Assembly: GCA_965225855.1 (NCBI GenBank)
Contig: CBDDCK010000005.1
Coordinates: 960,001 to 1,024,000, forward strand
Length of the DNA: 64,000 nucleotides
Source: Spirochaetia bacterium
Lineage (GTDB): Bacteria; Spirochaetota; Spirochaetia; SP-2023
Direction: 5' to 3'
This document shows positions 15,001-30,000 of this stretch, piece after piece (position 1 is the stretch's first letter; each line of letters opens with the position of its first letter). Position numbers: made by a program.

Positions 15001-18000
15001 CCATCAAGTGGATTACATTATCAATATTGGTTCTGCTGGTAGCCTAAGAACAGAAGGCCAGAATGGCGATATTGTAATTGCCAACAGCTTAGCCTATCAC
15101 GATGTTGATGTGCAGACATTTGGTTATGCTTATGGTCAATTACCCGGCAATCCAGAGCAATTTCCCAGTAATCCACAATTGAGGGAAATGGCATTAAAAG
15201 TAGCCAATGAATTTTTTGCTGGTAAACCCAATCAAGCGACTATCGGGCAGATTATCAGCGGCGATTCTTTTGTAGAGTATGGCAGCTCACATTTGGCTAC
15301 AATCCAACAACACTTTCCTCAAGCTCAAGCAGTAGAAATGGAAGCTGCTGCCATTGCCCATATTGCCTTTTTGTATGGTTGCCCTTGTTTGATCGTGCGC
15401 TCAATTTCAGACTTTTTGTTGCGCCCGGAAGGGAAAATAGATTTTCAGCAGTATTTGCCACTAGCTGCTGCCAATGCTGCAAAAATTGTAGAGCGATTTA
15501 TCTACCAGCAGCCCCGTTTATAGGCTTTATACTCGATCAGTTTGTTCTTTTTAGCTTGGTTGTACCAAGAACCAACAAAAAGGCAAATAAAGTAGTCGAT
15601 CGTAAAAACTAGATTATCATAGTGAAAATTATTCCACTACCAAGCGAGTAGTGGGTTGCTAGCCATAGTACCCACCCAAAAGGCAAGCAAGGCTTGACCA
15701 AAGTTTATCTTGTTACAAAAATCTCTTGTTAGGTATTAAGAAAATCTCTTGTTAGGTATTAAGAAAATCTCTTGTTAGGTATTAAGAAAATCTCTTGTTA
15801 GGTATTAAGAGACTCTATTATTGGGCATTAAGAAATTCTCTTGTTAGTTATTAAGAAATTCTCTTGTTAGTTATTAAGAAAATCTCTTGTTAGGTATTAA
15901 GAAAATCTCTTGTTAGGTATTAAGAGAATCTCTTGTTAGGTATTAAGAGAATCTCTTAATTTTTATGCCAACGTTCTGGTAATAATTATTGTAAGGGGTT
16001 TGTGCAAAGCTATTACTAAAAAAAGTTTGTAGCCTTAATAAAGTTTTTCTAGCCTTGGTATTTTCTCCATACCCAGGCTATAATTGGCCTATTGCAGCCT
16101 TGATAAAAAAACTTACCAAGGCTGCAATAGGCCAATGCAAGCGTTGCAACAACCAAACCCTACTTACCAACTTATAACTTGTTGTATATACTAGTGGTTG
16201 AGTCTTCTCGACTACCAGTTATAAATCCTGCTGCTGCTTCCAGGTTGTATGCACCATCATTATCACGAAGACCATCCTTAACCAGTATAGCATCAGCTTT
16301 GGCTTTTACACTACCCTTTAAAAAAATCTGTAAGACTTTTATAGTTGCTACAGTACCTGTGGCTGTGTTTTCACCTGTTGAGTGCTGGGGTAATTGGTAT
16401 CTCTTCTTACCATCACCGGATACAAGCGTCAATTTGCTAAAGTCCCAGTCTGCAACTGCTGTGGGTAAACGGCTACCATAAATAAGTAACTCGCCTGTAT
16501 TAGAAAAGTAGTATACTTTGGTGAGCCGGCTTGCGTAGCCATCAACGGTAATAGGGTTGCTTGTGTCTTCAGTGCTATAACCTGCAAATCCTGCTGCTGC
16601 TTCCAGGTTGTATGCACCATTAGCATCACTTTGACCATCCTTAACCAGTATCTTCTCGGCTTCGGCTTTTACACTACCGCTTAAAGTAATATTTAAGGTT
16701 AGTGAACTTACTTTAGAACCTGTGGCTGTGTTTTCACCTGTTGAGGAGTGCTTGGGTAATTGGTATCTCTTCTTACCATCACCGGATACAAGCGTCAATT
16801 TGCTAAAGTCCCAGCGATCCACTCTTGACGGTAAATCGCTACCTTGAATCAATAACATGCTTATGTTAGTATAGTAGTATACTTTAGTGATAACACCTGC
16901 ATACCCACTAACGGTAATAGGGTTATTGCTTGTGTCTTCAGCCCTACCACCTGCAAATCCTGCTGCTGCTTCCAGGTTGTATGCACCATTAGCATCACCA
17001 TCGTTAAACAGTATCTTATTGGCTTTGGCTTTTATACTACCCCTTAAAATAATCGTTAAGCTTGTTGCACTTGCTGCAAAACCTATGGCTGTGTTTCTAT
17101 TTGAATTTGAGTGCCGGGGTAATGTGAGTCTATTACTACCATCACCGGATACAAACCTCAATTTGGTGAAGTCCCAGCCTGTAACTGCTTCTGGTAAATT
17201 AGTACCTGTAATCACTAATCTACCTGTATTTAAATCATAGGTTGCACGGGTAATTGCGGGTGCGGGGTTTCCACTAACGGCCAAGCCTTTGGCTGTATCT
17301 AAACCCGCCCAAGTACCAGTGCTAGTAAGCAACCCATCTTTTAGACCATTGCTATCCATACCTGTCTTGCCATTCAGAGTAGTTTTATGTTGATCGGTAA
17401 GGTAAAGCCAAAGCGCTGTGCCAGCGCTATGTAGGCGGTACTTACCTTTTGCAAGACCGCGACTATCTGGCCCAGTGGCATCGTCATCTGCAGTATAGGA
17501 ACTTAAGGCTACCCCATCTACTACGATGGTTTGGATTTGGGCTTGGGTCGCACTACCTAAGTCAGTACCTTGCAAGGTTAACAGCGCCGTGCCAACATTG
17601 TAGCTTGCACCGGTAATTGCGGCTTTAGGCGACTGCTCTTCGGCTTTAGGTTGCTTAGGCGACTCCTCTTCAGCTTGTTCGACTTGTTCGTCTTTAGGTT
17701 GCTTAGGCGACTCTTCTTCAGCTTGTTCAGCTTGTTCAGCTTGCTTAGGCGACTCTTCTTCAGCTTGTTCAGCTTGTTCAGCTTGCTTAGGCGACTGCTT
17801 ATCGGGTATATTGCTAACGGTTAAGTCTTTGGCTGTATCTAAACCCGCCCAAGCACCAGAGCTAGTAAGCAACCCTTTTTTTAGACCATTGCTACCCACC
17901 TTGGCCTCAAGAGCAGCTTTATGTTCATCTTTAAGTTTCAGCCAAAGCGCTGTGCCATCGCTTTTCATACGGTACTTACCTTTTGCAAGACTGTTACTAT

Positions 18001-27000: not shown

Positions 27001-30000
27001 CTGTGGTTCCTTCGACTTTTTCATTTGTTCAAAAAGAAATTGCAGATACAGAACAATTGGGTACTATACAAAATAATGTTCGATCATCGCCAGCGTTACG
27101 AATTTGTGAAGATTGTGAGTATATTACCTGCTATACGGATGAGCATCTTTTCAAATTTTCTAAGCACAATGGTAAATGGCTTGAATTTAGCGCAGGGCAT
27201 GAGAATATTATTTATGAACCTTTGGCATTCAATTTGTGCCGTCCCGTGATTGATAATCACCAAGCTTATGCAGAGCAACTTTGGCAAAAATATTATTTGC
27301 ATTTGCTTCAGGAAAATTTCCAAAATATTCGTATTGCTTCTAATCGCTTGAATTTATCTGGGCAAGCTTCTACAGACATGGCAACGATTGTTGTGAAAAG
27401 TATCCTAGCTCCCCCCGCATATGGTTTTGGTTATGAGTGTTGTTATAATTATCAAATTTATGGTTCAGGCCGTGTGGAATTAACCCTTACAGGAAAGGCT
27501 TATGGTGATTTTCATTCTCATATGGGAGAGGGATTTCTGCCTAAAATCGGTAGTTGTATAAAAATTAACTCAAGTTTCCAAAAACTAGAATGGTATGGTA
27601 GGGGCCCCCAAGAATCCTATATCGACAGCCAAAGTGCTGCGTTAATTTCACGCTACCGTTGCCAGTTAGCCGATTTGGAAACACCGTATATATATCCCCA
27701 AGAATATGGCAATTTGTCTGAAGTGCGTTTTGCAAAGCTTGCTTGTGCAGCCCAGCAATTTCAAATTACCGCTCTTAGCGGGCCATTAAACCTTAGTGCT
27801 TGGAACTACCGCATGGAAGATATTCAAGCTGCACAGCACCGCGATGAATTGTATGTGGCACCGTATATAACTTTAAATATTGACCATCAATTGACGGGCT
27901 TAGGTTCCAAAAGTTTTGGCCAAGATGTTTTAGCCGAACATCGTGTGCCTTTTAAAGATTTTTGTTATAGTTTTGCTTTGGAATTGAAGTAAATTACAGC
28001 GTATTCAGCTAATAGGAAATTTTAGGATATGGGCAATAAAGTGAAATTATTGATGATCGATCACTATGATTCTTTTACTTATAATTTATTAGCTTTAATT
28101 GAATTACAAGGGATCAAAGTCGATTTGATCAAAAATAATGAGTACCGAGCCATCACAGGTTATGATGCGCTGGTTTTTTCGCCAGGGCCTAGCAATCCTG
28201 TAAATGCAGGTATTTCGCTGCGTTATTTTGATGAATGGGCAGGCAAATTGCCCATTTTTGGTGTGTGTCTAGGTATGCAAATTATGGCATATAAGCTAGC
28301 AGAACATGGGCTTGCAGGATATAAAGTGCACGCGGCTGTGAGTATTCAACATGGAAAAACCGATGAGTTAAAAGTGCAATTGGATTCGCAACTATTTGCT
28401 GGGATTCCCAAACAAGGGGCTAAGGTGGTGCGCTATCATTCGCTGGCTATCGCTGCGCCCGAAGAGCAAATTAGCTCTCGTGCACAAAGCGATAATGAAG
28501 TGATGAGCTTAGAAATCCCACAATGGAAATTATATGGGGTTCAGTTCCACCCTGAATCTATCCTTAGTGAATATGGGGCTGAAATAATACAAAATTTTAT
28601 TTCTCTATTGTGAAGCCATATTTTTCTAAATTTTAAAGAGAACCAAAAATGAAACCAATTATCATCAAGTTTTACAAGAATGGAAGTTTTACAAATAAAC
28701 AAAAGCCAAACAAAACATTTATTGAAATTTTCTATCTCGGATACCGGTTGTGGTATATCAAAAAATAAACACAAATTGATATTTGAGCGATTTTTTCGGG
28801 TAGATTATGACCGCAACCAAAAAATAGGTGGTAGTGGCCTAGGGCTAGCTATCTCAAAAAAATCTTATAGAATTGGTGGCAAAATTATGGGCCGAAGGGG
28901 AGCTAAATTATGTTTTGTTCTACTTTGCATGAGGTATATAGTTTGAGTAAAATTTCTTAAAGATTTGTCCTGCTTAGCCGAGTATTATGCAGTGAAATTG
29001 AAAATATTAATTACCAATGACGATGGTTTTGGCCATCAAGGTCATCAAAGCCTAAAAAAAATGCTCCAAGATTTAGGCCATGAAGTTTGGAGTATTGCAC
29101 CGCAAGAAAATCAAAGTGGCGTTGGAATGAAATTCACCTTGGGCAAAAGCCTAGAATTTAAGCAGCTGGATTCACATAGCTGGGCATGCTCGGGAACGCC
29201 TGTTGATTGTGTGCTATTTGCCCTACATGGTTTTTTATCTTTTCGCCCCGATGCGGTTATTTCTGGGATCAACGGCGGGGCGAATCTAAGTGATGATCTT
29301 TGGTATTCCGGTACAGCTGCTGCTGCGCGGGAAGCATCGAGATGGGGGCTGCCGGCTTTAGCTCTGTCTTACGATAGCTTACCTCCTTATAGCGAGAATG
29401 ACTTTGTTTTTTTTGGTTCTTTGTTTCAGCAGCATCTTAGAGATTTGTTGCAAGCCTGTGAGCTAAACGATGAAGGAGCAGGACAAAATCTTTCAGGCTT
29501 TTTAAATATCAATATCCCGCCTAATTGTAATGGAGGGGTTAATTTTGCCAATTCTTTTGCACTGCGGCCATACCATAATGTATTGCAAAAAACCGGTGAG
29601 GATTGCTATGTTTTAAATAGCCGTATTGATGAACAGCAAAAATATCCATCTTATGTGGATACAGCTATCAATAAAGCGGGGCATGTTAGTATCAGTTTGG
29701 GGGCTTTCCATAGCCTACAACCATTGCAGCTAGCTCCAGAGTTGTACAAAGAGGAAAATAATTTCTCACAAAATTTTCAGTTAGCTTCTACCAAAGAAGC
29801 GGTTGAGGCGATGAATCGTATAGCTCAAGTTGGTATTGGTTTTGCATAAAATTATGCTCTGTAAAAATATAATATTAAATTTTTTGGGTATTAGAATTTA
29901 GTACCATATTTGTTTTTATGGACTTTGTCAAATAGAAGAAAATGCTGCTCTTTACTCTTGGCTATTGCTTTTTTGTACACTATTTTTATTGTTTGGCTAT

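Follow-up and report, generated by a model that had tools for sequence, protein, structure and literature searches.

The operon, its leader and the adjacent lipoprotein cassette

The window analysed here is a 64,000-nucleotide stretch of the Spirochaetia bacterium assembly GCA_965225855.1 (G000; 2.7 Mb, 5 contigs, 94% complete), namely positions 960,001-1,024,000 of contig CBDDCK010000005.1, numbered from 1; positions elsewhere refer to contigs C1-C5. It was compared with three congeners (G001, G002 and G003). The features of the locus are as follows, identities being those to G001.

16172..18301, minus strand: repeat-rich putative lipoprotein of 709 aa, with a hydrophobic leader ending in Cys
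18251..19020, minus strand: repeated upstream segment travelling with the putative lipoprotein gene (blastn)
19152..19166, no strand: imperfect palindrome, 2 mismatches to the G001 operator candidate, 55 bp upstream of the -35 element
19221..19248, plus strand: near-consensus sigma-70 promoter candidate, TTGACA-16-TATCAT with TG extension, 11/12
19296..20519, plus strand: CUT1 sugar-binding lipoprotein (SBP_bac_1/8), 71%
20565..21446, plus strand: ABC permease, 74%
21443..22273, plus strand: ABC permease, 80%
22273..23946, plus strand: MGH1-like / GH63-type glycoside hydrolase (PF22422, E 7e-38), 59%
23996..24868, plus strand: EamA transporter, 69%
24897..27992, plus strand: GH2 beta-galactosidase (LacZ/EbgA architecture), 60%
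28680..28946, plus strand: kinase remnant of 88 aa (HATPase_c), absent from the first-pass annotation
28965..29849, plus strand: surE, conserved as the gene that follows the kinase

The genes from 19296 to 27992 form a CUT1 uptake and hydrolase operon in which the SBP_bac_1 protein, two BPD_transp_1 permeases and the glycoside hydrolases are all intact; no ATPase gene lies within it. The GH63-type hydrolase has matches at E 1e-30 in 8 of 201 genomes. Its collinear counterpart in G001, G001:C4:1966895-1975785 (59-80% identity), has a divergent lacI beside it, as the first-pass annotation had stated; the same divergent LacI-SBP layout recurs at an unrelated Sphaerochaetaceae locus. At the position of the G001 lacI, G000 carries the 709-aa lipoprotein instead, and G000 has no cognate LacI-family gene for the operon. 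The operon, or part of it, was matched in five sequencing-run rows from two studies, with no RNA runs among the matches listed.

The promoter candidate aligns with the -35 element of G001, whereas the perfect 15-bp palindrome lying just downstream in G001 is absent. That 15-mer (0/200 shuffles; 1 mismatch at L249, 3 at L250 and 2 at L251) is inferred to be an operator candidate, presumably GalR-like; a literature search found no published source for the motif. The palindrome at 19152..19166 is reached by 3/200 shuffles, and the window holds 16 matches to the G001 palindrome at up to 3 mismatches against 13.8 expected; it is possibly a leftover or a chance occurrence. No Rfam match or riboswitch was found in the window.

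The putative lipoprotein has no Pfam family and is present in about 105 dispersed full-length copies (105 tblastn clusters; 105 ORFs of at least 500 aa), and nothing that could count as a real match turned up in 2.35 Mb of congener plus outgroup sequence; its best Atlas score, 0.78, is below 0.9 and serves as a lead only. Since a strict lipobox pattern matches 0/105 copies, the label 'lipoprotein' is based on our reading of the leader. Besides the window copy, blastn detects the upstream segment in ten copies of ~580-960 bp (86-95% identity) and in many more of ~150-230 bp. These cassettes make up 9.8% of G000, and 166 of 361 neighbouring orthologue pairs (46%) are broken, often at a cassette. 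That a cassette stands in place of LacI, as first proposed, is true at the window; a specific replacement of regulators is not borne out, cassettes being found at 3/18 regulator sites compared with 230/3294 gene ends and 42/332 breakpoint ends. Gene order is heavily shuffled, and the absence of a regulator beside an operon is therefore weak evidence when taken alone.

Regulators and sugar genes within the genus

The regulator census covered 13 regulator-related Pfam families, with LysR, MarR, TetR, Fur and SorC outside the genome-wide search. LacI HTH domains numbered 0, 12, 2 and 2 in G000, G001, G002 and G003, and response regulators over the cut-off 1, 5, 4 and 4. HTH_18 matches numbered 6, 2 and 1 in the congeners, G000 having nothing above threshold, just a 27-bit match at C5:1435127; a second faint match (C5:343187, 17 bits, one stop) was left uncounted. 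The claimed lack of LacI, lack of intact AraC and reduction of response regulators thus all hold. A profile of 15 congener LacI N-termini, searched with --max against six frames with stops read as X, gave no LacI remnant genome-wide (best E 0.6), and four Peripla_BP_3 matches without a LacI HTH were read as sugar-binding proteins. OmpR-type regulators are likewise absent (Trans_reg_C 0, 1, 1 and 1), but the only OmpR of the genus adjoins a HAMP kinase and surE rather than a sugar operon. RpiR is missing too (0, 1, 0 and 0); its absence is uninformative, being shared by two of the three congeners.

The loss is wider than earlier claimed. Only 3 of 47 congener regulator groups are kept in G000, and none of the 8 groups listed from at least two congeners. 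At sites where at least 2/4 neighbours are kept, 2/23 regulators survive compared with 154/262 non-regulator ORFs (Fisher p 2.5e-6). The excess over chance follows from the LacI count tracking the SBP_bac_1 count among 40 relatives (Spearman 0.74), where all 23 genomes with at least 11 SBPs carry at least three LacI. The evidence supports a real loss that fell preferentially on local regulators and left their operons intact.

Binding proteins are retained in about the number first reported, with 39 distinct proteins in 37 clusters (local iterative searches), a few of which may not carry sugars; 18 are CUT1-type, 14 CUT2-type and 8 TRAP, accompanied by 33 CUT1 permeases. Counts across G000, G001, G002 and G003 are 18, 41, 8 and 10 for BPD_transp_2 permeases, as previously noted, and 18, 29, 5 and 8 for SBP_bac_1.

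It is very improbable that G000 never had most of these regulators, its operons having arrived without them or G001 having gained them. As many as 39 of the 47 groups come from a single congener, most of the 47 from G001 alone, where they could represent gains; G002 and G003 have few regulators, and the genomes of another family (f43: G095, G116 and G154) carry the window operon without an adjacent LacI. Against this, all eight groups common to at least two congeners are missing as well, and the window genes resemble their G001 counterparts (59-80%) more than those of f43 (38-60%). G002 and G003 have few sugar operons, and their low LacI counts fit the class trend.

The claim that regulator loss runs ahead of metabolic loss is upheld as regards the preferential loss of regulators, whereas the implication that metabolic loss has not begun is not, as several G003 genes lack a match in G000 and a sugar kinase is split. 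In a drift-driven erosion involving no adaptive switch, cheap regulator losses would come first, and many orphan operons, above all activator-dependent ones, would be weak or silent and decay later. Consistent with this, glmS, thyA, trpD, serC, feoB, nrdD and others of G003, together with the repair genes radA, sbcD, dinB and truB (judged from 0.92 of the 2.41 Mb of G003), have no match in G000; the sugar kinase is split at C4:187450-188902, 11 remnant rows were recorded, a GH130 gene next to a lost LacI is also gone, the G000 branch is long, and the leader of a melibiose-type operon that lost its AraC activator scores 8/12. The window operon, however, is intact and shows no rate increase, its six genes being as distant from G095 and G116 as the G001 copies are, to within ~3 points; the 39 binding proteins kept exceed those of G002 or G003, and the coding fraction is ~85%. 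On balance, drift of this kind seems unlikely, while retaining some weight.

Direction of loss, assembly and remaining control

The window remnant matches residues 719-803 of the 821-aa G003 kinase (55%, E 1e-24). It represents the C-terminus of the HAMP-HisKA-HATPase kinase partnering the only OmpR regulator of the genus, and the kinase-surE order is kept in G002 and G003; the regulator and ~90% of its kinase are gone from G000. The AraC stub at C5:1435127, with in-frame stops upstream, is divergent from an operon whose G003 counterpart retains an intact AraC. Both stubs are signs of decay in place. In the tree, whose root is placed by 447 columns of a single outgroup protein (72%), G000 and G003 group together (97% support); regulators common to G001 and G003 are accordingly older than G000, whose branch is the longest (0.26 vs 0.13-0.17). 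The remnants and the tree show that the direction was loss in G000, and both these remnants and the non-basal position of G000 count against regulators never having been present.

The first-pass annotation was correct that dnaA and dnaN are absent and that thyA is missing (the G003 gene has no match). Profiles of 30 and 3 proteins found no divergent dnaN or dnaA, and a DnaN homologue search returned seven relatives at 81-86% with no tie to G000. Because the six-gene dnaA-dnaN block is missing while dnaX and holA are intact, it probably lies in an assembly gap and some sequence is probably missing; the end of C5, the start of C1 and the end of C3 match nothing else. That the regulators lie in unassembled sequence, which the 94% completeness in five contigs might invite, is scarcely credible: dozens of scattered genes would have to be moved into a small gap, the remnants sit mid-contig, the 41 tRNAs serve all 20 amino acids, the single-contig congeners are less complete (89 and 92%), and the state recurs in single-contig genomes from other families.

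Chemotaxis is affected as well. MCP matches number 0 in G000 vs 4 and 4, and CheA, CheW and CheX have no orthologue, while a gene cluster that we take from sequence to be flagellar is kept (72-92% for most genes). We consider it probable that operon-specific transcription factors, two-component pairs and chemoreceptors have almost all disappeared from the G000 lineage, whose sugar operons remain intact and are likely transcribed without induction. Orphan operons would then likely run without substrate-specific control: those formerly under a repressor, such as the window beta-galactoside ABC operon, would be transcribed at a fixed level set by the promoter, whereas activator-orphaned operons would stay at a low basal level unless their promoters changed. 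Each regulator deletion may have been tolerated, as an operon without its repressor would still work; the shuffling of the genome, often at lipoprotein cassettes, may have helped to separate and remove genes, and a cell no longer sensing gradients would gain little from induction. A promoter-up signal across orphan operons was not evident, regulator-less leaders scoring at least 10/12 in 5/13 cases, not clearly above the background of 131/680.

Remaining control would fall to two DeoR proteins, a YtrA-type GntR, NtrC/sigma-54, three sigma-70 factors, XRE proteins and HPr. Alternatively, the operons could still be regulated if global or post-transcriptional systems (HPr-type inducer exclusion, stand-alone cNMP proteins, NtrC/sigma-54, XRE) had taken over. 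G000 does contain an orthologue that we take to be HPr (79%), cNMP-binding proteins, an intact NtrC and six HTH_3 matches. On the other side, the suggestion that CRP-like proteins regulate instead fails on the two cNMP proteins scanned, which lack a Crp HTH; the Fnr/Crp-type factor of G003 has no match, the single ROK protein has no HTH, the window gave no Rfam match, and these families are not expanded over the congeners. Such a transfer of control appears improbable, and induction-free transcription is retained as the preferred reading.

Other families and known systems

The state had been presented as special to G000, which does not stand: family f43, f12 (G015, G051, G076) and f44 (G085, G107, G128, G147) have no LacI, apart from one weak match in G107, together with 11-54 SBPs, a figure of first-look candidates from the 201-genome search, used as a proxy since scored SBP counts stopped at 10. 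The genomes lacking LacI include the single-contig G095, G015, G051 and G085. AraC is absent from f43 and f12, whereas f44 keeps 1-3, and MCPs are absent in G095 and G085, the two tested from other families. Unlike G000, these families keep 2-21 response regulators, and close regulated relatives were compared for G000 alone. Tentatively, and with less confidence than for G000 itself, unrelated spirochaetes (the Haliotispira-genus G000, f43, f12 and the 3-5.7 Mb f44) may each have lost chemoreceptors together with sugar-specific transcription factors, in independent events, and yet retained dozens of sugar-binding proteins. This would constitute a non-chemotactic, always-on scavenger syndrome, extending the SAR11 patch-residence rule to mid-sized flagellated genomes, with G000 caught recently, while regulated sisters and remnants survive. 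No report of a repeated joint loss of regulators and chemotaxis in sugar-rich spirochaetes was found in the literature search.

The question of whether regulators disappear before the pathways they control, and whether drift or adaptation lies behind it, is usually debated on the basis of SAR11 or of tiny, old endosymbionts, all far removed from a regulated ancestor. In this genus the regulator still adjoins the same operon in sister species at ~20 sites, covering repressors and activators, which makes a site-by-site promoter comparison possible. Since chemoreceptors are missing as well in at least two other families, the proposed connection of chemotaxis with transcriptional regulation can be tested inside a single class. 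For the window, the reference is the LacI/GalR-repressed beta-galactoside ABC operon (G001, locus L251): G000 shares its SBP and, in the case of G001, all six genes and the position of the -35, but lacks both the lacI and the perfect palindrome that follows the G001 -10.

That regulators can be lost while pathways persist is already known from SAR11 and Buchnera. Like SAR11 (Pelagibacterales), G000 has few regulators and two-component systems relative to its transporters and no chemotaxis; unlike that type, it has a 2.7-Mb, repeat-rich and shuffled genome with flagellar genes kept, and its congeners still hold the regulated state. Buchnera-type genomes are much smaller than G000, and keep biosynthesis where G000 keeps ~37 uptake and catabolic clusters. 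As described for Buchnera in PMC3064905, near-complete loss of regulatory genes accompanied retained pathways and static transcription, and PMC2688493 describes convergent regulator loss in host-dependent bacteria. With eroding symbionts, G000 shares preferential regulator loss, repair gene loss, rearrangement and faster evolution; mass pseudogenisation is not seen in G000, with 3/274 orthologues split and 11 remnant rows. According to the account in PMC8092579, regulators and two-component systems of 'Streptomyces philanthi' decay early in a still large genome, where erosion extends to transporters and glycoside hydrolases and frameshifts affect a third of genes; in G000, by contrast, transporters and hydrolases are intact and the regulators have mostly been cleanly deleted.

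Regulator loss beside retained sugar uptake

The genome under study (G000; 2.71 Mb, five contigs, 94.2% complete, the window being C5:960001-1024000) was compared with three congeners, G001 (3.5 Mb, 4 contigs), G002 (3.3 Mb, 1 contig) and G003 (2.4 Mb, 1 contig); the genus was placed by the DnaN of G002, identical to an NCBI protein named Candidatus Haliotispira prima. Family searches reproduced the LacI, AraC, response-regulator, OmpR-type, RpiR and BPD_transp_2 counts of the first-pass annotation, which had described sugar regulators as purged and sugar operons as kept.

Family matches in G000 / G001 / G002 / G003
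LacI: 0 / 12 / 2 / 2
HTH_18, intact: 0 / 6 / 2 / 1
Response regulators: 1 / 5 / 4 / 4
Trans_reg_C: 0 / 1 / 1 / 1
RpiR: 0 / 1 / 0 / 0
BPD_transp_2: 18 / 41 / 8 / 10
SBP_bac_1: 18 / 29 / 5 / 8

The 40 binding proteins reported as kept were borne out by 39 distinct CUT1, CUT2 and TRAP proteins in 37 clusters. A profile built from 15 congener LacI N-termini detected no LacI remnant in six frames of G000. LacI counts rise with SBP_bac_1 counts across 40 relatives (rho 0.74), and none of the 23 genomes with at least 11 SBPs has fewer than three LacI, which makes G000 an outlier in that set.

Neighbourhoods of 60 congener regulators from the family searches, collapsing to 47 groups, were mapped onto G000, where three groups are kept: one DeoR (82%), a YtrA-type GntR and NtrC. 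Among regulators with two or more of their four closest neighbouring genes kept, 2 of 23 remain in G000; applied to non-regulator ORFs of G001, this rule gives 154 of 262 (Fisher p 2.5e-6), a background whose spurious and G001-specific ORFs bias against the result. Besides LacI and AraC, ROK repressors, sugar-type GntR, most DeoR and an IclR are lost, as are a TetR and an Fnr/Crp-type factor of G003. In a genome-wide census of 13 regulator-related Pfam families, LysR, MarR, TetR, Fur and SorC not among them, what is left comprises two DeoR, one GntR, NtrC, three sigma-70 factors, six HTH_3 matches, cNMP proteins, HPr and a single ROK without HTH; the two cNMP proteins scanned carry no Crp HTH. 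The earlier observation of regulator loss is confirmed and extended.

One sugar operon occurs in three states, with an IclR in G001 (C4:434526), a GntR/FCD in G003 (C1:2345751) and neither in G000 (C5:64438). In G001, an intact LacI adjoins a LacI-sensor gene that a stop interrupts (fetched locus L184:7226-10281; G001:C4:1048313).

Remnants, direction of change and assembly completeness

Features in G000 (window positions unless a contig is named)
16172-19020: lipoprotein copy with upstream repeat
19221-19248: candidate sigma-70 promoter, 11/12 match
19296-27992: SBP-permease-permease-GH63-like-EamA-GH2 operon, intact
28680-28946: histidine kinase C-terminal remnant (last 85 residues, 55% identity to an 821-967-aa HAMP kinase), upstream of surE
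C5:1154526-1155824 and C5:1229143-1231023: parts of a split ABC operon
C5:1435127: AraC remnant, HTH end only, in-frame stops upstream

In G002 and G003 the intact HAMP kinase stands after the genus's only OmpR regulator and before surE; this OmpR-kinase pair, the only one in the genus, was deleted in place in G000. The counterpart of the AraC remnant is intact in G003, divergent from the same ABC/hydrolase operon. A tree of 16 proteins (6619 columns) paired G000 with G003 (97%), and the root fell on G001 (72%; 447 columns, one G004 protein as outgroup). All eight regulator groups listed from at least two congeners are missing from G000, and an unrelated Sphaerochaetaceae locus pairs the SBP of the window operon with a divergent LacI. 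Some regulators may be gains in single congeners rather than losses in G000, as 39 groups were found in one congener only; judged from these sequence comparisons, the regulators of G000 appear lost and not lacking from the start.

The absence of dnaA, dnaN and thyA noted earlier was upheld, none being found. A six-gene block conserved in congeners (fetched G003 locus L072:10037-18626), consisting of serC, a gene that we take from its sequence to be TatD-like, an unknown gene, dnaA, dnaN and another unknown gene, is wholly absent from G000, unlike the intact clamp-loader genes dnaX and holA. From these intact genes and the unmatched contig ends (no match for the C5 end, C1 start or C3 end on contig-end comparison) we infer an assembly gap, true loss of the sliding clamp (dnaN) being a possible alternative. 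An identical 743-bp overlap between the C1 end and the C5 start probably joins these contigs into 2.30 Mb. Dozens of scattered regulators do not fit easily into the gap. Both regulatory-gene remnants sit mid-contig, and every amino acid is served by the 41 tRNAs found.

Among 274 tested orthologues, three are split in G000, a sugar kinase among them; remnants account for 11 more rows. Orthologues were found for 363 of 647 ORFs in 0.92 Mb of G003; the 107 scanned of 256 missing ORFs include glmS, thyA, trpD, serC, feoB, nrdD, truB, radA, sbcD and dinB. The G003 copies of glmS, thyA and truB (L254:5698-7716, L282:12836-13621 and L263:12838-13842) have no match in G000. Some missing genes may lie in the assembly gap; if glmS and thyA are not there, the cell would need an outside supply of amino sugars and thymidine. 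The earlier interpretation, a switch to always-on sugar scavenging with the pathways not shed, is partly supported; orthologues are mostly intact, but metabolic loss has begun. Host association of G000 is that annotation's inference.

The window operon, its leader and the lipoprotein cassettes

The window operon and its G001 counterpart are collinear (59-80%), the G001 copy having a divergent LacI. Its six genes are no more distant from G095 and G116, of another Spirochaetia family (f43), than the G001 copies are, so selection is not visibly relaxed. In the G001 leader, a perfect 15-bp palindrome directly follows the -10 (0/200 shuffles) and is common, with one mismatch, to one Lachnospirales locus; it is missing at the equivalent G000 position, with a two-mismatch copy 55 bp upstream (3/200 shuffles), and from f43 leaders. 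Promoter scores reach 10/12 or more in 5 of 13 orphan operon leaders and in 131 of 680 from the background; the leader of the AraC orphan scores 8. Given the promoter scores and palindrome comparison, always-on expression would be a reasonable expectation in repressor orphans, the window operon among them, and a doubtful one in activator orphans.

The lipoprotein family numbers about 105 full-length members that share an upstream repeat and makes up 9.8% of G000. Neither Pfam nor Atlas gives it an identity, and 2.35 Mb of DNA from congeners and an outgroup contains no real match to it. Between G000 and G003, 166 of 361 neighbouring gene pairs are broken, and cassettes lie at 42 of 332 breakpoint ends vs 3 of 390 collinear ends (p 5e-12); they are markers of rearrangement. 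A cassette does stand in the place of LacI at the window operon, as first described, but this is not regulator-specific: cassettes flank 3 of 18 regulator sites, and targeted replacement is rejected.

One ABC operon, whole in G001 and G002, is split in G000: a cassette comes after the SBP, and another precedes the permeases, which lie 73 kb away. Other repeated lipoprotein-like ORFs are present in G001 and G002. Window positions 42000-60000 have low GC (30-35%), with a 1285-aa ORF at 44454-48311 and further unannotated ORFs.

Chemotaxis, other Spirochaetia families and known systems

Chemotaxis is lost too: no MCP was found in G000, against 4 and 4 in G001 and G003, the congeners searched, nor any CheA, CheW or CheX, while a cluster whose genes we read as flagellar is retained.

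LacI matches are absent in 48 of 201 Spirochaetia genomes. With first-look SBP candidates as a proxy for SBP counts, 5 of 106 other genomes with at least 15 lack LacI, all in families f43 or f44. Neither LacI nor AraC was found in f43 (G095, G116, G154), which has the window operon with no LacI adjoining, or in f12 (G015, G051, G076), also without GntR; f44 (G085, G107, G128, G147; 3-5.7 Mb) has 28-54 sugar-SBP candidates, at most one weak LacI match, 1-3 AraC and 0-5 GntR matches. Five such genomes are single contigs (G095, G015, G051, G085, G107). The LacI-less, sugar-rich state is not unique to G000, which is most extreme in response regulators (1 vs 2-21 in f43, f12 and f44). G095 and G085, the two genomes tested, have no MCP. 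These counts include kin and are not independent; that repeated co-loss of regulators and chemotaxis is a real convergent syndrome is conceivable, and we lean somewhat against it. What gives the finding its value is that regulated sister species exist, together with this putative co-loss.

The literature searched, supplements aside, yielded no description of a regulator-poor, sugar-rich state in spirochaetes, and 'Haliotispira' appeared there only in one list of names. Losing regulators while keeping pathways is already established. Bacteria that depend on hosts show a convergent reduction in regulators (PMC2688493), Buchnera retains hardly any and its transcription is static (PMC3064905), 'S. 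philanthi' lost regulators and two-component systems early, together with transporters and hydrolases (PMC8092579), SAR11 combines constitutive expression with many binding proteins (PMC11485210; PMC13198564), and lack of chemotaxis is tied to reduced regulation (bioRxiv 10.1101/2022.07.21.501054). G000 resembles host-dependent bacteria, Buchnera, 'S. philanthi' and SAR11 in regulator loss but is neither streamlined nor heavily pseudogenised.
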